Shown: one piece after another, positions 41,725-61,478 of the stretch
How the letters are laid out: each line of letters starts with the position of its first letter
How positions within the stretch are numbered: position 1 is the first letter of the stretch
From: Girardia tigrina
Taxonomy: Eukaryota
Assembly (NCBI GenBank): GCA_001938485.1
Contig: MQRK01187445.1
Location: 86,164 to 150,163, forward strand
Direction: 5' to 3'
Length of the DNA: 64,000 nucleotides
Made by a program: the position numbers and the translations under genes
The notes under the pieces: generated by a model
Database searches by the model: none
The model's input: only the letters and a program-made list of their open reading frames with translations
Told to the model about the DNA's origin: nothing

Positions 41725-41775
41725 GTAAAGCTTCTTTTTGTAAAAGGTAAAGTATTTATTTTTTTCTCGCTTTAG

Positions 41776-41891: not shown

Positions 41892-43639
41892 GTAATCGTA
41901 GAATTCATAATATTACAATATCATTTATTAATGTTTTATATTGTTAATTATTTATTAATGTTATTTAAGTTATTAATGTATATTTCTATTTTCTAGTACT
42001 TCTTAAAATTTATAGAAAATATACCTAAAGCAAATCGTAATATAATGCATCTCTACATTATAATGGACACTGTAATAGTCTAGTGACAACAACGCGTATT
42101 TTTTTTATTTTTTCTCATGTAAACATTTCGTAGTTTTTGTATGAATCTGACAACTTTTTGTTCGCATGTAAGTCATATTTTTTCTGTGATATGCTTTGTT
42201 TTTTTTGTGTTAATCCCTGTATCATATTATCATATTTTTTTATTTTTCATTTATATTTATATTTTTTATTTTTATTCAAATTCGGTTTTCAAGAAGAGAT
42301 GGAAACAAAGAAATGAAAGAGTAATTGGGACAGTGGGCAGTCAAGAGCAGTGTATCTCAGAAATAAGAAGAGAAGAAGATAATTATGATAATTTAATTAA
42401 GAAGGTTAAATTATCATATAATTAAAATTATAGTTTATGTTGTGATTGCATGATTTCAATTTGAATTTAAAAATTCAAATTGGAATCAATACATAAATTA
42501 TAATTTACCATAGTTTTACTTACGAAGCAGACAGTTTCAATTAATTAATGGCATTGAATTCGTACTACCAGTCTTAGCCAATTTTTGACGAATTTTTGTT
42601 ATATTTTGTTTTATGACAATCCACGATATTTGACTAAAACTTGACGAAACGAGATCAATTCTATATATCTCTATTGTGAAAGATATTCGAAATTTGCTCT
42701 GGTTCTTATTAAAACTATCAGACAGTTTTCAACCCTGTGAGTAACTGTTATACAAATTAAAGTGTTTATAGTTAAAACCAGATTCGTATTTTTATTTATT
42801 TGTTAATGTAATTTTTATCGGTAACCTTCTAAACAGGTTCATTAAACTATACTTAGTTTGGTTAATCTGTTTAGTTCCTTCTTTACAATAGTAAATAAAA
42901 ATAATAGTCCTTGGGGATTTGAGGAACGAATTCTTTATTTTATAGACACTAATAAGACTATTCATATAAAATAAATTTTCAAATTACAAAAATAATAATT
43001 TTAACTCTATCAGTGATAATATTCATTCATTAGTATCGTTTATTATTTTTCTAAATAATAAAGAACATAAATTTGAAAATAATTGTTAATATACAATAAA
43101 ATAAAATATAATAAAATAAAATACAAATATAAGATTATAATTTATCTTACATAAATTTATTAAAATTTAAATGAAACAATTTTTTTTCAAAAGAAATTAA
43201 TTCAAATTATATTTTTTCGTCGTTTTGTATTATCATTTTTCAGATAAACTTAACTGTTTTGAGTAACTGGGTTTGCAGACACTCCAAATAATTAGGTAAA
43301 ATACTTTTTTGCTACAAAATAAAGTGGGCGATTTTCTTTTCCTATTCATAACAGTATATGAGACAGTCAATTTTTGGATGATTAATATAATTAGTCAGGT
43401 TTTAATATTTAAATTATCAAAGTCTATCTAAATATTTCTAAAAATAAATATTTTCAATCTCTAAAAATTTCAATCAAAAACACAAATAATTTTTTAACAT
43501 TGATTTATCTTTGAGAAGTATCGTTCATAATGGAGTCAGTTTAAATCTCCAGGTTTCAAATCTGAATTCATAATTTCAACTAATTGAATATATTTATTAT
43601 TTTCTATCTTTTTGAATACTTAAACAAATTAATAAATAA

Positions 43640-45340
43640 TTACAACTTTCCTCTTTTATAATTCGTTTTTAATTTTCTTAATCCACTCAATATGCTTCCA
43701 TCTGACAAATTATGTAGTTTCAATTGGTTGGGGGATATATGCCTTGTAATTTGATACTGTCCATCGAATGTGAATTCGTAATTTCTCTGTTTCGTAAGAT
43801 CTTGTTTTACAAAGATTTTCTGACCATCCTCGAAATGTCGATCTGTTCTCTTCTCTCTCTCCCAATTTTCGATTCCTCTTGTCGCTTTCTCTAAATTCTC
43901 CTTTACCTTCATCTTAATCACGTTGCTCTCTTCGATATTAGCTATTCCTGCTGCCGCATGTAGATGTATTTTTCTACCAAACACAACTTCGAATATCCTG
44001 TCGAACTCTGGACTGTTGCATTTAGATAGAATTCTATCTTCGGAACAATTTGCGACCATGATCGATTGTCTGTCTCCTCTGTTTGTTACTATCATGTCTT
44101 TTACTGTTTGAATGTTTCTTTCTGCAAGCCCGTTTGATTGATATTGATATGGGCTACTAAATCTTTGTTTAATTCCATATCTCCTGCAAAATTCTCTAAT
44201 GTTCCGCCAGAAAAATATTTTCCATTGTCTGATAATATTGTTTTTTGGTTTCCATATCTATGTATCTATTTGATAAACACGCATTGAACTATGTTATCTT
44301 CGTTTTGAGCTCCACCATGATCAATAAATATGAGTACATGCTATTCTTGTCACCCACACATGCGATGTCCATCACGAATTGCTTTAAAAACTCGTCACTT
44401 CTTAATGGAATCAGCTTCTTTTTTGTTTTTTCGCTTGGAATCTTTTGACGTATGCATTCCTGACATTTTCCGATAACAATTTGCACCTCTGTTGCTAAAT
44501 CTGGTAGCATAAAATTATTTTGTATGTAATTTATTTGTCTTTATGATTCCTACATGGCATAAATTTCTGTGTATTTTCCTGATGAAATCTCTTTTAATTT
44601 GCTTCGGAACAAATGGTAGCACACAATTTCCTTCTTGCTATTCAATAACCCATTCTGATAAACTAATTGGTCCTTTAGTTGTAATAAATCCTTGGTTATT
44701 TCATTGTTTTCTTCCTCTACCCTTTCTTGTATTTGTTTCAACTGGTTCAACTCTGAGCACTTTCCTTGTTCGTCTTTTATTCCTTAAATTGTAGACTGAA
44801 TCATCACTGTATTGATATGTTTCACCCTTACTTTTGTTGATTTTGGTGTTGGTTTCTTCGTGTTTTGTTTAACATTGTGCACAGAAGTCGTGATAATCCA
44901 TCTGCATTTCCATGTTCGTAACCTTTTTATATTTCAAATCAAATTTTAAATCCGCAATGTTCTCTAACCATGTCTGGAATTGAGGAGTAATGGGTTTGGT
45001 GGTACTCTTTATATACCAGTGCTTTATGATCAGTTCTTGTTGTAAATCGCTTGCAATATAAATATTGCTTAAATGTAACATGAACTCTTGTAAAGCTAAT
45101 AATTCTTTTCTTATCACACAGTACCTTTTTCATGTATGGTTAAAGTCCTCGAAGTATACGCGATTACTACTTTTGTCTCTTCTGAAATCAGACTTAATAC
45201 TGCTCCTATTTATCCGGATGATACATCGGTATCTAAGATGAAATTATTATTCGGGTTCACATATGCCAATATGGGTGCACCACAAAGCTTTTGCTTCAAC
45301 TCGTTAAAACTTCTGTGCACTTGTCTGACCAAAATATTTC
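43640..45340 (-). mobile_element. Decayed Ty3/Gypsy pol (RNase H, integrase)
   Basis: FILDTD.SG..GAVLS, KKYC...KELLA, RTDHKAL, KCQEC, MDIA, LSDNG, FSSPYQYQSNGLAERNIQTVK and FDGQYQI. Confidence 0.85.
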
Positions 45341-47834
45341 TTTACATTTTCCGCTACATGCACTGTGAAACGATGCTGAGCCTGTCGAAACAATAAATCA
45401 CTCTTCTTTGAAGGATCAGGTAAAACTTCGAAAGCATGACACATGCACTGATTGGTGAGGTCACTGTTGCAATCATCACAATAAACATTTTTCGGTGGTA
45501 AATAGTACGTATTGTCGTGGTCTCATTGCATTCGATTGGTAAAATCGCCACTGAATTCAAATCATTGATCACCGAGAACTGTTGTTTAGGAACGAACGGA
45601 TTCGAAAAACAATTAAATCGACTATGTTACGACAACGACGATGAAGAAGATTTCGAGTTGCCGTTATTCGCGAACGACGTATTCGACGATTTGATGTCGA
45701 GTTTCATGCGATTCAAATAATCGATTATTAAATTCATTGAGAGTGAAATTTCGGTCATTATTGAAATCAATCAACAAATTCGTTTATTTGTGAAAATTAT
45801 ACATCAGCAAAAACAAATTCTAATTCCAAAAAAGTCACGTATAATAATTATTTAATTTTCAAAAAAAATTCCCGCAAAATCATTCATTTTAAACTAAAGA
45901 AAATCGTTCACAAAAATGAATATTAAAAAATTAATCAGTCAAATTTTTTAACCAAGACAGTAATAATGTTCAAAATGAACATCGTTCAAAATTAAAATTT
46001 TTTTACTTTATTTTTTTTTATTTATTTTGAATATTTTTTGTAAGCTTAATTATTATTTCATTTTAAAATCTTTTATTTAACTTTTAATTCTTTTAATTGT
46101 CTCAAAACCTATTTATAACATATCAATTATATACATGTATACAAACAAGCAAAAAAAGCAATAATATTTTCCAGGGATTATCATTTACAAAATGTCTTGA
46201 GATAAGAAAGAGAGATGACAGAATCTGATTTATATAAAAAATAATATTTTTTTAAGATATAATAATTTTAAAATTGAATCGTGAACAGTGAAGTTGTTTC
46301 AATTTTTGTACCATTTTATCCATATTTGGCTCAATTTTGGTTGTTGTTTTTCTTAATATGGCCTCTAAATAAGTATAAGTTAATCGCAATCTTTTATATA
46401 CATATAGAGCATTTGAATTGCTAATTATTTTAATTATTGAATTTATTTTTGATTTAATTGTTTGTAAAAATTTCGTGCATTTTTTTCTTTTTTGAATATA
46501 TTGCACAAAACTTGGTCACTCTACAGGTCAATTAACTCAAGTTGAAGATAACTTTGTGTATAACTATTTTTATTATTACTGGGCTCCTAATTATTGACAA
46601 AGATCTCTCGAAAACAAAGACATCTACTAACTTCAGTAATTCAATTATTAATGTTATCTTTGTTCTGGCTGATTCTTTTATCAGTAGCACAATGAATTGT
46701 GTGTTATATTTGAAAATGATTCAATATTTTGTCATTTAAAATTGATGGAAAATGTTTAATTCCTTGTCAAATGCATTTAAATGTTTGATCATGAGCATAA
46801 ACATTTTCCCTTGCAAAATTTTATTAAACTCATTGAAATAATTTAAAATGTCTACTGAAAAATGCGAAATCGCGAAACCAGTCTTCATCTAATAAATTTG
46901 AAAAATTATTGTTGTTTTTCAAATTTAAAAATATAATTTGCAATCAATATAATAAACATTGCAAACCATGTAAAAAAATTATTGATCAATATAATATTTC
47001 TTTCAATCAACATAATAATACTTGCAAACAATATAAAAATGTAAAATAAGAATAAAATAAATAAGATAAAAATTCCAAAAGATTTGGTGACCCTGGATGA
47101 CTGACCGAGAAAGAAGTCCAAGTAGTGACAAGCATTGTTTTAACATAGTAACTGGGCACCAAATGGGTGTCCACTGAGAACTTTTTGGTACCCAGCCATT
47201 GATTAATAGATGAATTGGGCACCCACCTAGAATATTCTGTTGTGTAGCTCCATCTTCCTCCACTTCCAGATGTAACTGGTTTATCGGATAAATAAACTTT
47301 ATCCTTCTTTATCGCTCGCTCCCCCATTTCGACTCTTAATTTTTACAGCACGGCAAATAGACTGATTCATAAACTCATTATTCTGATGATAATCACAGTC
47401 CCATTTCTATAGATCAAGTTGTGACTGTTCACGTGTACAGTACTTATTTTTTATTCAATGAGAGTTATTCATTGAAGGGTATCAATACTAAAATTTATTT
47501 CCCATATAGTTTGAAATAGATGCATTTCAGAAAAATAGGTTTAATTTTCACGACATTGTCAGAAAGTGGGTGCCTAGTAAAAAACTGTTAAAATATGATC
47601 TGAGTAGTGATAAAGGGATGTACTCGTCTGGAGTCAATTGATTCCTTCCCAGTAAAGTGGTAGAAAGGCCAATGTAGCGTCAAGAAAACGTTGCAGCAGC
47701 TCACCATGGATGTGACTCACACATGGTATGGGAAATTCATGACACTGGTAGATGGAGGCCCGGGGTGGTTCAATGTGTAGAGGAAAATTGTCTGAGAAGG
47801 CGACGTGGACTTATGTACTGGAAATAATTTTAAA

Positions 47835-48233
47835 TTACTTTTGTTGATCCGTTTCTTTCCCAACAAAAAAATCTCCGGCGGGGTCAAGTATTAACGTCCA
47901 TAGGAACGCGCCCCAAAATTCAAGCTCTTCCTCAAAAAATGTAAGACATGTATTGGGTGGAACATGAAGTCTACCTGTTCTATAAAAATTAAGAACAGCT
48001 GAAAAACAGACATAATGCCGGTCAAAAATGGAACTCCCACATTCTTGATCTAATGATTCATGATCTAATGGACATGAAGCGAATTTTGTATGAGGTAACG
48101 ATGATAATACATCTTCAAAAATTTGAAATATATGACCACCGACATTTATTGTCACAATGTCCTTATAATAAATATTTTCATCTCGATAGTTCCAATCCGG
48201 ATAAAGGGGCATCTCTTTCGTCAGTTTACTCAT
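47835..48233 (-). CDS. Voltage-gated K+ channel T1 (BTB/POZ) domain ORF, non-Shaker type; probable pseudogene or isolated exon
   Basis: IVTINVGG..F......L...[37 protein letters not shown] (contains the HX5C zinc motif). No transmembrane or pore exons recognised in the window. Confidence 0.8.
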
Positions 48234-48632
48234 CGCTTTATATATATTTTCTCGATATATATATATCTTTAATATTATCATTAAAAAATCAATATTTTTT
48301 AATCTTTATTAGTTATCAAATTTTAATTATCATAACAAATTTAATAAAACAAACACATGTAATCATAACCTTTTTATACGGGTTTTCCCTCTTTTTTTAA
48401 CAATTAACATATAATTTTCATTTCAAGTTAACTAAAATAATTTTAAAGTATTTTCTTTCCTTTTTAATTTTTAACATTAATTAATTTTTTATGTAATATA
48501 TATTACATATATTACATATGTAATATATATGTTACATATATAATTTATTGAAATCGGAATTAAAATTTTTCAATAGGTTTTTTTCATATATATAATGAAA
48601 AGAAAGGCCATTTTTAATATTAAATTTATTCC

Positions 48633-48675
48633 CAATACAAACGCGTTTCACCATTTCGGCATCTTCAGTGCAATG
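48633..48675 (-). ncRNA. Second, antisense copy of the minimal hammerhead ribozyme
   Basis: Exact reverse complement of 50053-50095 within the inverted pLTR. Confidence 0.75.
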
Positions 48676-50052
48676 AAATAAAGTGATTAATTGCTATTTA
48701 TATAGTTGAATTTCATTTGATATGGTAAATCTTTTCACCAATATTCCATTGAATGAAACCATTAATTTATGCGTTAAATTATGGGATAATTTGGTAGAAG
48801 ATAAAACTAAGTCATTGAGTAGTAAAGCATTAAGAGAATTATTGGAATTCAGTACTAAAAACGTACCATTTATTTTTAATGAAGAATGGTTTATGCAAAC
48901 TGATGGAATNNCTATGGGTTCACCTTTAGCACCTTTGATGGCCTCTATCTTTTTGCATAATTTAGAACAAAAGTTCAATAATTTTAATGGCGAATTACCT
49001 TTATTTTATACGAGATATGTTGATGACACTTTTCTTATATTTAAAGGTGGAGATAATGTCTCACGCTTTTTAGAGTTTGTAAATGATCTTCACCCTAATA
49101 TCAAGTTTACCTTTGAAATGGAAAATACTAATAAACTATCATTTTTAGATGTATTAATTGAAAGAATGAAAGATAAATATCAGTCTCGAATATATCGAAA
49201 ACCAACTGATACCGGTTTGTACAGTTGTCCAAACAGTTTTTCTGACCCAAAATACAATAGGAACATGATTAAAGGTTTGGTACATAGAGTCTGGGGTTTA
49301 ACATCAACCTTTAAGATATTTGATAATGAAGTTGATGAACTTCATAATAGGCTTTCTAAAAATGGATTTAATAAAAAGTATTTAAATAAAATCATAAAAG
49401 ATACTGTTTAATCCATTTATTTAAAATCAAATAATGCATCAAATATAACTTCGGGAAATGACATTGATAATCAAATGACTATCAATCTAAAATTACCGTA
49501 CTCAGAGAGAGCAAAAGAGTTCAAACGATTTTTAGAACATCGAACACCTGTTGGCTTAAAATTGAGAGTAATCTTTTTAACTAATAAATGCCGGAATTAT
49601 TTCTCCAACAAATCAAAAACTCAGTTGTGTATTAAGGCAAATCTAGTTTATCAATTCAAATGTCACAAGTGCGAAGCCTTGTACATTGGAGAGACAAGTC
49701 GTCATCTCCGCACTAGAATTGCTGAACATACTCAATCGAGTANNNNNNNNNNNNNNNNNNNNNNNNNNNNNNNNNNNNNNNNNNNNNNNNNNNNNNNNNN
49801 NNNNNNNNNNNNNNNNNNNNNNNNNNNNNNNNNNNNNNNNNNNNNNNNNNNNNNNNNNNNNNNNNNNNNNNNNNNNNNNNTCATAAACCATGCTTAAACG
49901 TGCAAGGTGATTCATCTAATCATATTAAAGTTTTTTAAAATATCATTAAAAATATTTTTCTTTTTTTTTAAGAAAAGGAAAAAAAGCATGTTTTTGAGAA
50001 GTATGATGTAATAGTTTTTCAACTATATAAATAGCAATTAATCACTTTATTA

Positions 50053-50095
50053 CATTGCACTGAAGATGCCGAAATGGTGAAACGCGTTTGTATTG
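50053..50095 (+). ncRNA. Minimal type I hammerhead ribozyme in the PLE pLTR
   Basis: cattgca-CTGAAGA-t-gcc gaaat ggt-GAAA-cgcg-TT-tgtattg: CUGANGA and GAAA core, 3-bp stem II, palindromic stem III (ACGCGT), GUU cleavage triplet, imperfect stem I. Confidence 0.78.
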
Positions 50096-52552
50096 GGAAT
50101 AAATTTAATATTAAAAAATGGCCTTTCTTTTCATTATTATTAAAAATGCCATTATCAGTTCTAGATAATATATATATATATATATATATATAATTGTGTT
50201 GTCAAATTAAGATGATGTACTTTAAAATTTATGTTGGAGGGAGAAGAAAACAGAGATAATTAAGAATTTATTAGTTAAAATTACTGTCTTTTTCGCTAAT
50301 AATCTAAAGTTATACATTATGTGGTATGGTTTTAATTATGGTTATAATTCGTAATAGACGTAAAGTAAATATGTATTCTGTTTCAAATCGAGAAATAATT
50401 CTAAAATTCAGGGTTTATTATTTGTATAAAAATTATCCATAGTAACTTTAATTACTATTTTTCTTCAGAAAGGAAGTTTTAGAAGATAACAATATTTTAT
50501 ATAATATTTTAATAATGTATTTTATCAATTTTGAAATAATTCTACTACAATTAAAGTCAGAACAGAGATAACCTGAAAAATAATGATTGTTAAATATAAA
50601 CTTAAATAATATTTTCAATATATTACACAATTATATAAAACCATTTTTTGGACATTATACGCAAATCAGACATCGCATTCCGAAAAATTATTTTCATCAT
50701 CAAGTTTTCAATGTGATTTGGGTTAGCCATGAGAATTGACAGAAATTAAAAAATAATTTTTCAGAAAATTTTTTAGTACAACATGAAAATTAAATAAACG
50801 TGAATTATCCATGATCACTCTCAGACTAATTAACCAACCATTAACAGATCTATCAATCGTCAATTGAGAAAACGAAGTTTCCTCTATCGTTTCGTACTTC
50901 GCACAAGGTAACGGAGACATGATAAAACAATAATTAACAACAAAATGATAATCAATCTGAGACGAAACCTTTCACTCACAATGTGATCCACCAAATTTTA
51001 GTCTTAGCATTACATTAAAAATCTTAAATTCAATCAGGATAAATCAACTGAAATGACTGATCAAATTATATTCTTAAAATCATTTATGCTCTCAACTGTA
51101 ATATGTTTGAATCTGGTGACTATTAACAGTGACTTCAGTTTATTAACAATCAAACAAAGTTAAAAAATCAATCTCTGATAAAATACATTTTTTCTGGATT
51201 TCATATTGTAAATCAAAATCTCTTTTATCACGTTCTTTCACAATACAATTTTGGAATACGACCTTTATAGACTTAAAATCAGATATAAAAGATATTTTAA
51301 AAATCTTTATGTTTGGCATGTTAAAAAAGGAATTGAGGAATTTGCGAATATTTGTTATTACATCTCCTGTATAATTCTTCTAGATAAAAATGTGGAACAT
51401 TTGTTCTCTTTTTTAACTTTAGTTATACTCAAAAGCTCTACAGCAATGATTCAAAGTATGGCTGATATTATCCCTTAAATGCATTCTAATGAAAAGGGGA
51501 GTTAAAGAGACGATGGGATTTAAAGTTTGGATTTTTTGACCATTTATTTATTTTATACGCCATATGATTTTGATCAGTCAGACAAGTAACTTAAAAAATA
51601 ACCGTGGTCAAATTTCCGTACTCCTCTCAAATCAAATTGTAATATTAAGAAATTTCTTTTAATTTATTTAAGAACATGAGCCTCAATTTCCTTATCTCTA
51701 TGTTTGAGGGTTTATAAAAAATCTTCTTAGACTCAATTGTCTTCCTACAAGCGTATGTATTTCTTTCGGTGCTCCAAATCAAAAGATCCATTTTATCATT
51801 AGGGTGTCTTATAGTTATTTCATCCTACTTGATAATAATTTTCAATGATATGTACATACTAAACTAATCAATTATCGCCACAATATAATTTTTCTTTCTC
51901 CAGGTCTCTTTTAGGGGTCCGCATATGTATATACACAATTTCTCAAATGGTTCATAATGGACAAGTGTTATTCGTTATTCTTTTTACTTTTTGGTAGATT
52001 ACACTGTCAAATTACTTTTATTTGTTTTATTCTAGTTCATCATGTCATAATTCTTATCATACAATACAATACAGTATAAATCTGAATGATCGTCGTAATC
52101 TTTTCGATTTCGGTATCCAAATCTGTCTCATGTTGGTTCTTATTATGCTGTCTTCAATCGTAAATTTTGTATCTTTACATGAAGCCTCCGATGCGTTTAT
52201 CTTTTTGATGCCACGAGTCTTGTATCTTCTGTATTTTTGAATCTTTGTGAGCCATCAAGCATTGATGACATACATCACAATTATTCAAAGATAACTTATC
52301 CACACTTGAATGCTCTGTTCCTTTTATACCACATATAATAAAAACATGATTTTCAGTATCGCTTAAAAATTTTGTACGCGAAAACAATTGGTTTTCACTG
52401 AATTGAGCGTGTGTATTAAGTACTACTTTGGAAACACGTGACGTTGCGAATTTTAAACTTTTTACCGCGATTGACCCGCGAATTTTAAATGTTTTTGCTA
52501 CGAAAAATTGACAGCCTTAATTATAACTAATATTAATAAAATGTATTTAAAA

Positions 52553-53210
52553 CAGGTGTAATAAAAGAAGCATTTTTTTCAAAATGTCATCCAAATTAGA
52601 TGTTTAAGTATTCTGATCTTGTTTTGTATGATATTAACATAAATATTTGCCCTAAGGACTCAGTGCGAAAAATATTACTAACTTTAAATCTCTATAACTC
52701 CAACATAAATTCACAAATTACAAAAACCTAATCAAGTAGGCTGTTGTTTGAATAAATCAAAATAAAATTCATTTTAGTATTCATTTTTCATGAATATGTC
52801 GTCAGAAACAGGAAGTCGCGAATTAATTATTCGTTTATTTCAAGAAAATCCACAATCAAGTCAGAATAAAATTGTCAGAAAAGCACAGGTTTGTCAGAAA
52901 ACAGTTTCTAACGTTATTAAAAACTTCAATGAGAACTTAAACGTTTTTAGAAAATATGGTTCGGTAAGAAGAAAGGGTTTTTCGTGTACACAAAATGTGA
53001 AGAAAGTAAAGGCTCTGTTTAAAGAGAAATCATCGTCTACCAAATCGAAAACTGGCGGTAAAGGCAAATTGTAACGAGAAAACAGTTCGGAAAATTAACC
53101 AGTCTGTGAGTTTAAAAGCGCATAAAGTTTAAACAGTACCAGACCGGAACACTAAGAAGAACTTAAAGGCGCAACAGCGAGCTAGAAAGTTAAAATCTGG
53201 TCTTCTTACT
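52553..53210 (+). mobile_element. 5' half of a Tc1/mariner-superfamily element
   Basis: caggtg-initiated end; HTH-type ORF RELIIRLFQENP..SQNKIVRKAQVCQKTVSNVIKNF.....RK.GS.R; truncated before the catalytic domain. Confidence 0.6.
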
Positions 53211-53347
53211 GATGTGTACCCGCATCTCTAAATAACAGAGGAAAGGAGGTACAGATAATTAAAAACTTGATCTATAACGGTGGCACGCCATCGTGGACTC
53301 GGTCTTTATAGAGGTGGTCACTAACTCTGTCGATTGGGATTGAAGAT

Positions 53348-53509
53348 ACTAATTTAATTGCAACCAAGGAACTAATTTCAATAAAGGAACTAATTTCAAC
53401 TAAGGAACTAATCTCAACTAAGGAACTAATCTCAACTAAGGAACTAATCTCAACAAAAGAACCAATTTCAACAGAATATTTAATTTCAACAAAGGAACTG
53501 ATTTCAACA
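53348..53509 (+). repeat. 18-bp minisatellite (AAGGAACTAATYTCAACW), ~9 units
   Basis: Visible tandem array; read as EISSLV repeats in ORF 53272-53556. Confidence 0.95.
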
Positions 53510-53850
53510 GTTGCCTCATACATTGCTTCCAATGTTGTGAATAATCGATTTATCAATATAAAAGCATTTAACTATTGATGTATATAATTTTACTGAATTA
53601 TGAAACAAATAAAATTTAAAATTTCATAGTCAAGATCAACCAAACTACGGTTAATATGAATTCTATGTATTCGAAAACTATTAAAATTATGTAATTTCTA
53701 ACAGATCTGTCTCTTTGATTCAAATAATTATAACTATAAACTGCATAATATGTGATAAGTTAATTAGTACGTTCAACATTACTACATTTACAGAATGAGA
53801 CGCTTACACAAGATGTTAGCATGATCATATAATTTTAACGATGTAAATAA

Positions 53851-56800
53851 ACAGTGAGGGGCTACTCACCCATACTGGTCTCCAGAACTTGAAGGCGATG
53901 CAAACTCTTCACTATTTATAGATGAAGGGTGAGGGAGACGCGTCCGGCCACTCAATCGAAAATACCTACAGAAATATCACACATCGGGTTGATGTTGAAC
54001 CCTTAAAAAACTCTGGGGGCTCAGAGTCTCCAGAAATGTCAACACGTGAGGTGGCCTTGGCAAACAGAAAAATTATTTTCAATTAATGAACTATTTTATA
54101 AGTTAAAAGATTATTATAATAGGAAAAAAATCTGAAAAAAGTCATGAATAAATTGTATTATACAAAACTAATTAATTATATCAAATTGTATAACTTCAGC
54201 TCTACACACGGGATATTGTATATCTGATTGTTTTCAGATGCAATTTTGACTCCTTTTTGTACATCTGCGGCAAAAAGTTGAATTTCCACAATTAAATAGT
54301 ATATTTCTTGCGCCATTTCGGAAACAAACTACACAATTTCTGTCTATTTCAGTACCATTTGATATATTTCTAAGAAATACAATCAAATTATCATTCCCTT
54401 AAAATGACAATAGGAGATGGGTTTTGTTTGTGGCAGACTTGATACACTATGATATCTCAGTATTAGATCCCACTGCAGATGTTATATATGAGAGTCTGCT
54501 ACAGAGAATGAGAGTGACTGCTCGATATATTGAACACTTGTGTCTCACTAAACGAGAGATAAGAATAAATGTATTTGGGCAATCACGTCAGTTAGTGACA
54601 AATGCAGGACAGATAGGGCTGATGGTATGTGGATACATTCGAGCTCTGATGGAAGAGCGACCACTTTTTTATATAGACGTTCAGAAACTCAAAAACAGGT
54701 CGCAGCACAACTCATCAGAGTGAAGAAGAAGGGTCCTGTATCAACATGAAGCAGAAGGAGAATTACACCACTCTCAATGCAACTCGTGCAGCGAGAGTAG
54801 AAAGATCAATGACTTTTGCTGAGGTCCGATCATCAACAGTGGACCCGGACATACTTGAGAGGGATATAACAATTTATATCCCACTCTCACAGGCCCATTA
54901 AACGGAGAAATCTGTATATAGGTAGCAAAGTTGTCGAGTCCACTAACCAGGACCCCAGCTTAAGAAAACTATATAAGACTCAACCGAAGAAGGCGGTACA
55001 GTTAATTCTAAATAATACAGTTGCTGACACTACTTCATCGACAGATGCAATCATGGAGCATTTTAGTGCAAAATCGGTTGCCCCCATATCAGCGATCTAG
55101 TGGATACTCTTATAGTTAAGAAAGGCGATCCATTTGATTTTAGGGAGGTTCTGGCTGGTGAAGTGGTGGAAGCGCTGAATAAGGCGAACAACTCATCCCC
55201 GGGTTACTCGAATATAACATATAAAGATATGTTATATTGTGATCCGGTGGGTGCTATGTATACGAAATTGTACAATAGGGTCATTAATATCCGAGTGATC
55301 CCGGAAAGTTGGAAGCAGTTCTTCACAACACTTCCTAAACCGGGAAAGCAAGGTCACTACAATGAAGTGTCTTCTTGGAGACCGATAGCTCTCTTAGAGT
55401 GTGCCTACAAGATATTGGTCACACTTCTAAGAGATCAATTGAACAGATGGATTGTAGAGAATGATCTCCTGCATCCAATGCAGAAAAGTCTGGGACCGCA
55501 TGATGGTTGTGCAGAACACAACTTTCTCATTAGGGCGATCTTGGACAAATACTACTCGCAGTTGGTGGGAGCTGAGTTCCACGCGACAATGTTGGACAAT
55601 GCTGATGCATTTGGTTCAGTGTCGGTGGAAGTCATCCTTAAATTGCTGAGCAGAATGGGTGTAGGAGCAGAATCATGTGACCTGATTAGACAGTTGTACA
55701 AGTACTTTTCGTCGGCGTACAAATACGACAACACGGTGACGGGTCAGATCCCGATTTTGGTGGGAGTGCAACAAGGCTGTCCACTCTCAATGTTGTTATT
55801 TAATATCGCCCGGTCTTACTGGAGTTGGACCAACAATCTTATGGCGGTATGATAATAGCTAATCACCGTGTATGTTGCTTGGCTTATGCTGATGACCTTG
55901 TGCTGCTAGCAGACAATCAGAGTCACATGCAGATGATGGTTAATAAAGCGGTGGAGCTGACCGATATATTAGGGATTAAATTCAGACCTTCCAAATGTGC
56001 ACGGATAGCGATTCCACATAATCCGAATAACAGGATCCAGATATATGGGAGCGCTATCCATGAAATCACAGAAAGTGAATTCGTTGTATATTTGAGAGGT
56101 CATTTTTCAGAAAACATAAGGATCGCACCAGTTGAGATGCTTGCAGAAGTCACAAAGGAAACAGTGAAGATTACAGAGTCTATACTGTTTCCTTGGCAGA
56201 ATCTGCAAGCTTACATGATCTACCTGCACTCCAAGCTCATATTCGCATTCAGGATCTTTTATATTCCATATGGGACCCTAGATGGCAAGAGCTACAGTCT
56301 GGACAATGTGATCAGACTGTTGCATAAGAAGGTGTTGGGACTGCAGAAGAATGCATCAAATGCGTATCACTACACGCCGAAAGAAAATAGGGGGGTCAGC
56401 ATCAAGTCTTTACTTGACGAATACCTGATACAGTCGCTGGCCCACAGTTTCCAAATGATCGCGTGTAGCGATACGACAACAATGGATGCTGCAGTCTTCT
56501 GCCTTCAGCGTGGAGCAACAGGTCCCCGAAAGACACGTCTCTTGTCGATTGAGGCAGCAATACGCTGGCTGAACACTGGGACACAATCGGGAAAGATCAA
56601 AAACTGGTGGGCGAAAATTAAGTTCGCCATACATAAGATTAAAAAACTGCACCAGATTTCAGTAAGTCTGGTGCAGATCGAGCGGGGCATATGCCTACAT
56701 ATACACAAATCTCTGGTGTGGAAAAGGAAATGACCAAACGGTGATATAGAAGTGTTACGAGACGAAACGAACGAAAATATGCTCCTAACCCCCCTCTCTA

Positions 56801-58069
56801 AATCCAGTGTGTCCAAGACAATAAGAAGATTGATTGAGAAATCTTGGACACACAAATGGAATGTACAAAACAGCGCTGGAAGGTTTGCAAGAAGCTTGTA
56901 ATCCACAATTAGTTTCCACAGCGCTGTTTATGGGGAGGGTTGAATTATAGTGAATGGTATTTTTATCATAAAGCGATGACTTACACAGTGCCTGTTAACT
57001 ACCGACCTGGTAGTACTAAGAACGGAGGGCACTGTCGTAGGTGCCCGCACAATAAGGAGACCCTCGCCCATGTACTTACAGAATGTAAGTACAGCGAGGG
57101 ATTTAAAAATTATAGGCACAACTCGGTCCTCTATTGTATAGGGGAGCANNNNNNNNNNNNNNNNNNNNNNNNNNNNNNNNNNNNNNNNNNNNNNAGATAT
57201 GCTCCCTCACAGGACCGAGTTGATCTTCAGGTATACATCCCAGGATCGAGGATCCTGTACCTGATAGATGTGAAATGTCCGTACGACACGAAAAAGAACT
57301 TAGACAACAGCAACAATAAGAACCTTGACCATTACAAGTCTCTTGCTGTTGCTTGTAAGGCAGCAATGCCAAACTCAACGGTGACAGTGGTCACCCTCCA
57401 GGTAGGGTGCCTAGGGACGTTGCCGCAGAGGAGCACTGACATCTTAACAACTCTGAAGATCCCGCAAAAGGTGATAAGACAAATTGCAATTGGCTGCTCT
57501 TTATCCAATGTTAAATACTCAGCAGCCCAATGGTCTTATCACCGAGATGGAATAGTTCCAAGCGGGATCCAGAGAATAAGTAAAATAAATATAGAGAAAT
57601 ATGATGAACCTCAGGAAGGCATGTTGATGATGGAAGAGACAGAATATGAACATGTTGTTCCTGAGGAGGTAGAAGAATTTGATCCGGCCGCCCTGGATGC
57701 ACTCGTGCAATCTTACAGTTATAGAGTAGGAGTGCAACAGGGGGGTGTATTAGAGATTGAGGATCAACCAGAAGATGATCCATCCGATGATGAGCTAGTC
57801 TCCAATCTATATAGGACGAGGATTGGAGATTCATTAGAAGATGTAGATAACTCATCATGGGAGGAGGACCTGGCCTTCGATGAAGAGTTATTAAGGTCGA
57901 ATCAGTGAGCAGAGTGTTGGGTTCGGCGGAGACGTTCACCCAAGTAATGGGTGCGAGTGAAAGAACCCCTGTGGAAACCAGGGCCGGTGCAAATGATACC
58001 TTCAAGTTGATGCATGCGGCGAATTTATTTATGTAAAAACCGGGCACTTTTGCTCACTGACAAAAAAAA
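53851..58069 (+). mobile_element. NeSL/R5-like non-LTR retrotransposon with REL endonuclease, frameshifted
   Basis: RT motifs WRPIALLECAYK, DGCAEHN, LDNADAFGSV, GVQQGCPLSMLLFN and LAYADDLVL. CCHC CRRCPHNKETLAHVLTEC, RHN, and PD-(D/E)xK-type RVDLQV...LIDVKCPYD. A-tail at 58062-58069. The 5' boundary is inferred from the GC/structure transition. Confidence 0.88.
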
Positions 58070-58099
58070 TAATCGCTGCCACTGAACTCTAATGAATTG

Positions 58100-59620
58100 T
58101 TATTCTCGGAACCATCTGAATTTCACCTAAGCCTGGTAAATTATTGTCTGAAAATTTTGGTAATAAATGCTGCATTTCAAGTGGTAATTCATCAAATTGG
58201 AAAAATCGCATTAGGAATTCAAATTCATTTATTTCATTGAAAATCAATTGATCTTTAAGATTTGAAGGCAGTGTGATTAGATATTCTGGATTACTTTGCC
58301 GAGTCGTGATTAAATTGTTAATAATTCATTAAATTTCTAAGTCAAAGTCTTTAATTATTGTATTCAATTTGTCAGTAAAGAACCATGGGTTTGCATGGTG
58401 GACAGCAAAGGTGGTTTTCAATTTCTTGTTAACGGTTTCACTAAAATTTGTTGTTTTACAATTAGAATCAAACAAGCTGATTTATTGTAAATCTCTCAAC
58501 CAAGTCCTAGAAAAATAGTTTTTAAACCATTCAATATTTAATTGATGATTAGGACGACCGATTCGAATGTCTTTCAACTTTTCAAAAGTATATATTATTC
58601 TGTCTGTTGGTAAAAATCCAATATGCAAAACAAATGTACACCGTGCTTTTGCTAATTTATTTTTTGTAAAAAGATTTTTTAAGTGCATTTCCCCATATTT
58701 TTTTTATCACAGCTTGTTTAAAATGAAAGAGACACCCTTGTACATGAATATTAGGAAATGTTGCACACAGAGCAATCAAGGAAGCTCTTCCAAAATCGCC
58801 TATCGTGAGACTTGGTAAAAAAAACGTGGTATCAAATCTCTAATCTTCCAATATATAGCATGATAATGAGCAGTAGAGCGATTTTTCATCAAAACATAGA
58901 ATGTTGGGATGTATCGAGTTCCATGTTCAACGGAAATTATAAAAAGTTGAAAACACATTGAAGGGACGATATAAAATGTACCATCGTAGCATATATTTTC
59001 AAATGAATTTATGTTTTCAATTGTGCTTTCAGAAAAAAATAAAGCTCCAATTATTTGGCCATTAACACTTATATCTCCTTTAAATTTTCATTTAAACCTT
59101 CGAGATTAACAAGATTTGTGCAAATTGCCTCAAAATTTTCAGGAATCGCAGGGAACAATTCAGCTTTTTGCTTGCTCATTCCTCTGCTAACCATAGGGAA
59201 AGACAATTGCGAGGAAATTTCCTGTGGGTACCTAGAACTAACTTCATCAAAAATTTTTCGAAATGTTTTAGACGATTTTGAGGCTTCTTCAAGTAATTCA
59301 ATTTTAAATTTTTTTAATGGCAATTCGTGAGAATCTGGGCTGTGGTTGTGTGGCTACAATACTTTTAATTTATTAATTTTGAGATCAATGACAGCAGAAC
59401 CCATGCAATCCAAATTATAAAATAATTGACACTTCAAATTTATTGTTTGTTTGTTGGACTTTACTTTATAATAGAGAAAAGAATTGACCATGAAATATTT
59501 TGAATTTTTTCGTAGGCCTCCTTTAATTTCAAAATCAATTAAATTTCTGTCATGGTTAGATTCATCCATATTACAATGTAAGAAAATAATAAAATTAATT
59601 AATACTGCTTTTAGCAAATA
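58100..59620 (-). mobile_element. FLYWCH-MULE (Phantom-like) transposase, decayed
   Basis: FLYYK...INLKC....CMGSA...HNH (FLYWCH), CYDGTFYIVP, GDF, GCLFHFKQA, WFKNYF.RTWL and TTNFSETVNKKL...HANPWFF. Confidence 0.85.
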
Positions 59621-59880
59621 TAGCCTTTGTTATGAATAATTCCTAGTTAAAATGTATAAAATAAATATAATTTTGAATAATCACTTACCCACTGAAATGT
59701 ACGGAAGTTTACACTTATCGATTTACTAAAAATTTCAAAAAGGTGATATTTGTATATTACAGTTAATTTAAACAATATTATTTTATTTTAATTGTAATTT
59801 TATTTGATTAAAATGTTTTTTATTTCATTTAATATGATCACAACACTCAAATAGTTTAAAAAATAATGAATAATATATAT

Positions 59881-59988
59881 TGTTGAAATTAGTTCCTTTG
59901 TTGAAATTAGGTCCTTTGTTGTAATTAAATTTTCTGTTGAAATTAGTTCCTTAGTTGAAATTAAATTTTCTGTTGAAATTAATTCTGC
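59881..59988 (-). repeat. Inverted copy of the 18-bp minisatellite, 6 units
   Basis: tgttgaaattagttcctt units, including the same gaa(a/t)atttaatttcaaca variant as the left array. Confidence 0.95.
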
Positions 59989-59994
59989 ACCCCA

Positions 59995-60830
59995 TGAAAA
60001 ACTCTTGACATGCTTGTTCAACTTCATCGAATGCTTCGAATCGCGGCCTTTCAAGAAGTGTTGCATGAATCGAAAGAGGCCATAGTCGGATGGAGCGCAA
60101 TCAGGGCTGTAAGCAGGATGCATCAGGATTTCGACTCTATCCAACTCTTGGAACCTGCCCGTGGTCTTCTTGGCGGTATGCGGCTTGGCATTGTCTTGCT
60201 GAAACAGTGCACGTTTTCGGTTGATTAAGGCAGGGTACATCTCCTTGAGCTTCTCATAGATACGGTCCAGCTGTTGACAATAGAGCTCTGCATTGATTGC
60301 CTGGCCGTTCTGAACCAACTTAAAGTGCACGACTCCCTCAAAGTTCCACCAGACGCACAACATGATTTTCAGGCCAAATCGATCTTGTTTTGGAACTGAC
60401 CGCATTGCTTGACGCGGTGGAACTCATGGCTTGTCTCGGTTGTGGTTGACCAAGTAGACCCAGTTCTAGTCCGACGTCACAATTCGTTTCCACAAGCGGT
60501 CATCTCGTGGATTCTGTAGCAGTTGTCTGTAAATTATGACTCTTTTGTCTGTCTGTGCTTTGGTGAGTTCGTGTGGATCTTGACGCGGTTTCTTGTGTAC
60601 AAAGTCGAGCTGCTTCAAATGCCAAATGTATGGTTGACTTGCAAACTCCAAATTTAAATGCCAAATCGCGAGTGATTGACAAAGGCATCATGTCTAACTC
60701 TGCTTGCAAGTCATCGTTATCCAATTTTGTTGGTCGTCCAGAACGAGGACTGTCATTCAAGTAAAAGTTGCTTTTATTGAAACGCTTGAACCAATCAATT
60801 ACCGTACTTTTTCCGACCATTTGTGTACCT
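59995..60830 (-). mobile_element. mariner (DD34D) transposase remnant, 3' end truncated at the minisatellite
   Basis: STVIDWFKRF, LNDSPRSGRP, IVTSD, KIMLCVWW, FQQDNAKPH and HPAYSPDCAPSDYGLF. Confidence 0.9.
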
Positions 60831-61478
60831 TTTAGGACAACCTAATAATAATCTTTGGGTTTTTTAGATTATTGATTTTTTTCTTTAGTTTGTTGTATTT
60901 TTCTAAAAAAAATCTATTTTATAAGGACTAAAGTTTATCTTGAGTATTAATATTATTGCTTAACAATCTAGAGATTGAAACTGATTAAACTGGATGAAGA
61001 GTAATTCAAATTTAATCTTGAGTTTAAGTGCAGTTGATGCTTCATATTCATAATGATAACCACGAAGAATATTAATAATTAACTTAGAATATTTGAAAAT
61101 ATTAAATAACTATTTATAACTTGCATTTATTGATTTTAAATATCAAGTCTTATTGATATAATAAATGATAAAATTTCAGAGGATTTTATTTCGAATATTA
61201 GGAGATTAAAATTTCTCTAAAAAGTCGATATGTTTCGAATTTGAGATAATTAATTAATTCTGATTTTGCGGACATTTTATATTTAAAAGGTTCCAATCAA
61301 ATTGTTATATATTATTGATATTTTTAAAGTAACAATTGAGATTTTAATGTGGTTCTATTGCATAAAAAATATATTCTTTTATGAATTACTTTTAAATATT
61401 TTTTGTGCAACAATTCCATTATTGGGTTTTGTTTTTATTTTACATATTTAAAAAATTCTGATTTGAATATAAATTCAG

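Follow-up and report, generated by a model that had tools for sequence, protein, structure and literature searches.

A 5'-truncated Penelope-like retrotransposon with hammerhead motifs on opposite strands, probably inert, in a predicted LNX-like gene intron of Girardia tigrina

In EN+ Penelope-like elements (PLEs) a target site duplication is optional and the tail measures 30-40 bp. An inverted pLTR, a tail carried by one arm only and the location of the first ORF codons within the pLTR are described as typical in the available text of PMC3846280, together with truncated copies exhibiting inverted pLTRs and no target duplication; PMC8557442 calls the inverted-pLTR arrangement frequent. Dual minimal hammerheads on opposite strands have been traced to truncated PLEs in PMC4209133, the accessible part of which reports no cleavage for single minimal motifs and low cleavage for dimers. 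For the anole Poseidon element PAc, the sections available of PMC11167929 report that both strands are nicked and extended, that two internal RT start sites bound the tail, that the ribozyme cleaves only with the element protein and is dispensable in vitro, and that RNA-seq exhibits no RNA ends at the ribozyme site. siRNAs match inverted regions of rearranged Penelope copies (PMC3681739, in the part available), and dsRNA or siRNA from Penelope inverted repeats is to this extent already described and not new. Judging from these sources, the architecture discussed below, the opposite-strand hammerhead pairs and the Penelope inverted-repeat siRNAs are all already in print.

We analysed a stretch of 64,000 nucleotides of the Girardia tigrina genome (hereafter the window). 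It exhibits a single frame, on the plus strand, in which a reverse transcriptase (RT) is followed by a C-terminal GIY-YIG endonuclease, the frame being broken by one stop codon (49409-49411) and by an assembly gap. The RT (48710..49411) is 5'-truncated, beginning at motif A, includes the thumb and ends in the in-frame TAA (RVT_1 E-value = 2.4e-9); its closest database protein is 52% identical, and a PDB search found no PLE RT structure. Downstream come a linker and the N-terminal half of the endonuclease (49412..49742, plus strand), with a GIY-YIG profile match just under the Pfam cut-off (E-value = 2e-4). The gap of 138 N (49743..49880) equals, by hand count, the 46 codons missing relative to the homolog P0012, whose end is resembled by the endonuclease C-terminus that follows (49882..49938, plus strand, stop codon at 49938). 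The RT-endonuclease linker lacks the CX2-5CxxC zinc finger, as reported for Penelope/Poseidon in the available text of PMC8557442, a clade to which the copy may belong. Within the endonuclease, CxxC and the first H of the CCHH motif are seen, the remaining CCHH positions falling in the N gap. The preliminary description, which had identified a 5'-truncated PLE provided with an inverted pLTR, is right on this point. This copy of an EN+ Penelope-like retrotransposon, 5'-truncated and stop-interrupted, is dead.

The body of the element is bounded by a near-perfect inverted repeat of about 120 bp, as had been claimed (48592-48710 against 50018-50137, 120 aligned nucleotides, BLAST E-value = 6e-55 within the window). 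The two arms differ by one substitution (50052) and one indel in a run of A. Aligned to the right arm, which is the portion of the 3' pLTR common to both copies (50018..50137, plus strand), the left arm is an inverted copy of the element 3' end, that is, an inverted pLTR, without the tail (48592..48710, minus strand). It abuts RT motif A (ISFDM) at 48710 with no gap at the junction. On the right side, 28 nt (50138-50165) continue past the shared arm and stay in the ORF frame until an (AT)n repeat is reached. This stretch, present on one side only, is most likely the tail of the element, as read from a single copy. The span of 48592 to 50137 given in the preliminary description holds for its left boundary; the right end lies more likely near 50165.

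The putative start of the element ORF, MAFLFIIIKNAIISSR, is located inside the pLTR (50118..50165, plus strand, ATG at 50118). Its FLFII-like N-terminus is similar to those of three related loci (L007, L044, L069), and by this resemblance the pLTR holds the putative first ORF codons. Relatives carry similar hydrophobic N-termini directly after the ribozyme, and one of them (L053) likewise passes from such codons into a TA repeat. An (AT)12.5 microsatellite at 50168..50192 is the probable target site. AT repeats flank the element on both sides, and a target of this kind would most likely hide any target site duplication. Tandem non-coding units each with a ribozyme, the hallmark of non-LTR retrozymes, do not occur at the locus.

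Each arm exhibits the sequence features of a minimal type I hammerhead. The right-hand motif (50053..50095, plus strand, core 50060-50088) consists of a stem I of 4+2 bp, a bulged U, a 3-bp stem II, a palindromic stem III and a GUU triplet, with a predicted cut after 50088; the core on the opposite strand (48640..48668, minus strand) is identical, with a predicted cut after 48640. In both arms the core reads CUGAAGA-U-stem II-GAAA-CGCG-UU, and agrees with the CUGANGA, GAAA and UH elements together with stems I and II. The extra base after position 9 (the U bulge) and the ACGCGU palindrome of stem III are present as in PLE hammerheads. A descriptor, written after the motif had been seen and relaxed once so that the U3-A8 core would pass, matches only these two places in the 64 kb, against 0.02 matches per window in 50 block shuffles. 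The predicted cut after 50088 is the one given in the preliminary description. An Rfam hammerhead scan gave no match, either in the window (E-value up to 1) or in a segment of 301 nt (E-value up to 10). A covariance model built from 30 of the 33 relatives' motifs placed the Girardia motif at the top of 38 matches in 15 kb with 15.3 bits and an E-value of 0.25, a score to be read beside a background match elsewhere of 17.9 bits. The stem covariation in the underlying alignment is partly circular, since these stems were already required by the descriptor. A search of viral and prokaryotic genome collections for the exact 27-nt core found no occurrence.

The relatives are 78 loci from metagenome contigs, representing the best 80 of 424 confirmed matches. 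Such ribozymes occur in 31 of these 78 loci (33 motifs), and none appeared in 20 shuffles of the set. Where at least 250 nt follow the endonuclease, a ribozyme lies there in 25 of 46 loci (again within the best 80 of 424 matches). Among the 33 motifs of this best-80-of-424 sample, pair 10.1-11.1, G-U in Girardia, is G-C in 29 and G-U in four, and the bulge base is U, as here, in 31. The GUU triplet is no sign of decay, since U17 is found in 15 of the 33 motifs (best 80 of 424 matches). Stem II is weak: its energy is -1.1 kcal/mol, whereas the median for 30 relatives is -3.75. Minimum-energy folding of the monomer misses the ribozyme structure, and the energy reached does not surpass that of shuffles (z 0.6 to 1.4). 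For the homodimer, an over-paired 10-bp helix (-19.1 kcal/mol) is favoured over an active-like fold (-16.1 kcal/mol), these nearest-neighbour energies ignoring tertiary contacts of the core. Stem I is barely populated in folding calculations even without the left arm.

An inverted repeat of at least 40 nt was identified in 12 of the 78 loci (best 80 of 424 matches). Three of the 12 (L031, L051, L066) were set aside as inverted RT pieces, and four others (L021, L026, L056, L058) as inverted repeats of something other than the 3' end. A clear upstream inverted copy of the 3' end is found in four loci of the 78 (L006, L017, L028, L072), and possibly in L050, again among the best 80 of 424 matches; the count of four is a lower bound because many contigs are too short to exhibit both ends. 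One of the four, L017, has its truncation immediately ahead of motif A, as in the Girardia copy, and the core in its inverted arm is mutated.

We consider it quite probable that the locus is a 5'-truncated, stop-interrupted EN+ PLE copy with its own 3' end inverted, likely produced when a single insertion took place at an (AT)n site, and that its hammerheads are likely inert passengers. The anatomy of the locus, read together with the part available of PMC11167929, suggests the following course. The element protein would nick AT-rich DNA at the target, and the template would be copied twice from the region of the ORF start. The first copy would begin at the tail end and stop at motif A after about 1.45 kb, and the second would begin 28 nt further in and extend for 119 nt. 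The two products would then be joined head to head. On the best reading, the inverted cassette arose as a by-product of this insertion. With differences at 2 of 120 positions between the arms, the insertion appears fairly young. The intact state of both ribozyme cores fits youth, and would also fit selection.

The element is located within a predicted intron of 19,587 nt in an LNX-like gene (41892..61478, plus strand), placed by homology and splice signals. The best PDB match of the upstream exon is LNX2 (E-value = 1.5e-4). The intron splits a PDZ domain: the exon ending at 41891 matches residues 21-39, and the exon starting at 61479 matches residues 41-68 of the same PDB chain, the match of the first half being weak (E-value = 0.07). 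Its borders are GT/AG in phase 0. The sense orientation of the element within an LNX intron, as originally proposed, agrees with this arrangement, in which the splice itself is deduced from the two PDZ halves and the GT/AG borders. Related retrozymes are depleted in Xenopus introns according to the available text of bioRxiv 10.64898/2026.07.22.740005, which indicates that intronic ribozyme elements can be selected against. In the present case the hammerheads are likely inert passengers of the host intron, and the insertion likely does nothing special to its host.

Of the readings that would give the arms a function, the one that survives best takes each arm as an outward-facing core promoter of TATA type, with transcription beginning at the hammerhead's 5' edge (near 50054 on the plus strand and near 48674 on the minus strand). 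We regard it as unlikely, and it can hold together with the explanation as a dead insertion. Both arms exhibit a TATA-like box, TATATAAA, at 36 nt ahead of the core (50024..50031, plus strand; 48697..48704, minus strand), as judged from the sequence and from enrichment in the relatives. The usual TATA spacing puts the start near 50054, in the 5' strand of stem I; the predicted start of the left arm would likewise point out of the element. The relatives were counted at one copy per locus in 28 related loci, being the 31 with ribozymes less two with short upstream sequence and one duplicate. TATA(A/T)A(A/T) occurs at -33 to -38 before the core in 8 of the 28 (best 80 of 424 matches), against 1.7 in mononucleotide and 1.6 in dinucleotide shuffles; none of 2000 mononucleotide or 1000 dinucleotide shuffles reached eight. 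This zone was chosen from the Girardia element and then tested on the relatives, and the loci are not phylogenetically independent. In the other 10-nt bins from -140 to +59, the motif is found in at most 3 of the 28 loci (best 80 of 424 matches). A rotifer element pLTR is also described with a TATA box plus initiator (PMC3846280, in the part available). However, 20 of the 28 relatives lack the box (best 80 of 424 matches), 7 of the 28 also exhibit the motif on the opposite strand, initiators are only weakly enriched (7 of 28, with up to 5 in the comparison), and only 6 nt of the arm lie upstream of the box. Drosophila Penelope, moreover, is reported to possess a TATA-less internal promoter (PMC2377424, available text). 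A bacterial promoter scan gave matches at chance level and does not apply here. The antisense arm would be absent from transcripts started in this way, and the one from the left arm would cross the potassium-channel fragment discussed below in the direction antisense to LNX.

If RNA started at the 5' edge of the ribozyme, cleavage 29 nt ahead of the ATG would strip it of a capped leader of about 35 nt. A TATA box fixed branch-wide at 33-38 nt before the core, combined with a protein-assisted cut, would then constitute a self-decapping switch taking the mRNA off translation once the protein binds, and inverted insertions would plant two outward promoter-ribozyme units. These units would be unmasked because their RNAs would start inside the arm. 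We give this extended scheme a small chance only. Our literature search, with most subscription papers outside its reach, found no account of a TATA box associated with Penelope hammerheads. What PLE hammerheads do is treated as an unsettled question in the available text of PMC8557442 and PMC11167929, and a fixed TATA-to-ribozyme distance, if true, would predict both the start of the RNA and the part of it that is lost on cleavage. The coupling of promoter and ribozyme is the one lead worth following here, doubtful as it is.

The preliminary description had proposed a different function, a self-neutralising cassette: the right-hand ribozyme, sense to the host gene, would cut the LNX pre-mRNA, and the antisense arm, transcribed 1.4 kb earlier (1350 nt ahead of the core by our count), would mask it, inverted copies thus being tolerated in introns. 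The pairing of the arms is well founded. At equilibrium the balance lies overwhelmingly with the arm-arm duplex, whose energy is -181.8 kcal/mol, while an arm folded by itself reaches -11 to -13. In a fold of the whole element 118 of the 119 left-arm bases are paired, and the core bases of the ribozyme are 99.9% paired with the other arm. Within the LNX pre-mRNA a 120-bp duplex of the two arms, enclosing a loop of 1.3 kb, would block the ribozyme, and this duplex could be edited or diced like that of any intronic inverted repeat. What does not stand is the functional need, as there is little to neutralise. Each strand carries one sense copy, stem III cannot close in the monomer, and cleavage of the LNX pre-mRNA is not supported. 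A lone ribozyme needs a second sense copy because stem III of the monomer would require a 2-nt loop, and the other arm cannot serve as the dimer partner because it is antisense; no sense partner is provided in cis. In the texts available, single minimal motifs are inactive (PMC4209133), the PAc ribozyme needs its protein (PMC11167929), and introns cut by a slow hammerhead are still spliced (work cited second-hand in PMC2995048). A lone minimal hammerhead with neither sense partner nor element protein would hardly cut, so masking needs no selection to explain it, and inverted arms arise routinely from insertion. We thus hold the cassette to be improbable. The literature covered by our search, which left most subscription papers outside, contained no account of antisense masking or editing of PLE ribozymes. 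Masking, if true genome-wide, would account for the survival of some intronic PLE copies and not others, a matter that one locus cannot show.

It is very improbable that the inverted arrangement is an artefact of assembly across the N gap. The 138 N do separate the body from the right arm, and PLE structures are stated to trouble short-read assembly (PMC8557442, available part), but the length of the gap is that of the missing endonuclease codons, the junction of the left arm and the RT is gap-free, the arms differ at two sites and the tail is present on one of them only.

The weakest proposal, that a potassium-channel T1 mRNA begins where the minus-strand ribozyme cuts, is scarcely credible: orientation and the distance of 406 nt from cut to ATG (announced as about 400 nt, and confirmed) agree with it, but the cleavage product would be uncapped, at least nine ATGs lie between the cut and the T1 ATG, and the ORF looks truncated. 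Hammerhead cleavage leaves an uncapped 5'-OH end. The ORF in question (47835..48233, minus strand) encodes a Shaw/Kv-type T1 domain by domain match, and its homology to all four full homologs ends at FWG (47910). The conserved EPCCW of the homologs is absent in all three frames, and no pore motif was found in six frames of the window, although exons may lie beyond it. Another context holds a nearly identical T1 piece, P0067, which is decayed and stops at the same point. From these sequence features, the T1 ORF is probably a pseudogene fragment.

The functional additions of the preliminary description are either known by-products or unlikely, and the locus as it stands is one more truncated Penelope-like insertion, which matters little. 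Its closest counterparts in arrangement are EN+ PLEs of the Penelope/Poseidon type such as the Pen2 derivatives of Adineta vaga (PMC3846280; PMC8557442, both in the text available), which share the inverted pLTR and the tail. In contrast to these, the Girardia copy belongs to a different family, with 52% identity to its best database protein, lacks a direct upstream pLTR and has a putative tail of 28 nt. With the minimal hammerheads of metazoan PLEs described in the available part of PMC4209133 it shares the core, the extra base between 9 and 10.1, the palindromic stem III and the occurrence of opposite-strand pairs in truncated copies. It differs in a stem II of only 3 bp (mostly 4-7 in the relatives), in the G-U at 10.1-11.1 and in a palindrome that can be extended to 10 nt.

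The anole PAc element (PMC11167929, sections available) resembles the Girardia copy in the position of the ribozyme near the ORF start, in the AT-rich target and in a tail delimited by two RT start points. Its cut is located 26 nt inside the ORF, whereas the predicted Girardia cut lies 29 nt before the putative ATG, in a dead copy. Non-LTR retrozymes, in the available text of PMC7229834 and bioRxiv 10.64898/2026.07.22.740005, have the type I hammerhead and the PLE origin in common with this locus. They are, however, non-coding tandem repeats, whereas the Girardia insertion is a fragment of coding sequence whose two ribozymes stand inverted and not in tandem.

The Penelope-like element exhibits a TATA-like box at window positions 50024-50031 (+) and 48704-48697 (-). 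In the element and in 8 of 28 related metagenomic loci (L009, L025, L028, L029, L037, L042, L068 and L072), such a box precedes the hammerhead core at a near-fixed distance of 33-38 nt.

The LNX-like host gene shows a candidate 36-nt intron at 41740-41775, required because the PDZ exon must stay in frame. The large host intron also harbors a decayed non-LTR element (about 53900-57900, +) with a reverse transcriptase (PF00078), followed 3' by what looks like a Cys/His and restriction-like nuclease region; fragments at about 43640-45400 (-) resemble coding sequence for the RNase H and integrase of a gypsy-type element. Two 18-nt tandem arrays of opposite orientation (53355-53509 and 59880-59985), adjoined by mariner-like pieces, are 76-90% alike and spaced by 6.4 kb. 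Besides pairing of the element's two arms, these inverted arrays are a possible second source of dsRNA in this intron.

The homology of the Shaw-like T1 ORF (47835-48233, -) extends no further than FWG. The protein database contains a decayed and nearly identical piece (P0067) with a different left flank, which suggests dispersed T1 fragments.

Among the relatives' hammerhead motifs (L001-L076), the U3-A8 core variant is commoner than C3-G8, and the cleavage position is U in many. At the related locus L017 (75-163 and 1479-1567), the sense-arm ribozyme core is intact and the inverted one mutated. The architecture of L017, truncated just before motif A of the reverse transcriptase, is nearly a twin of that of the Penelope-like element in the window.
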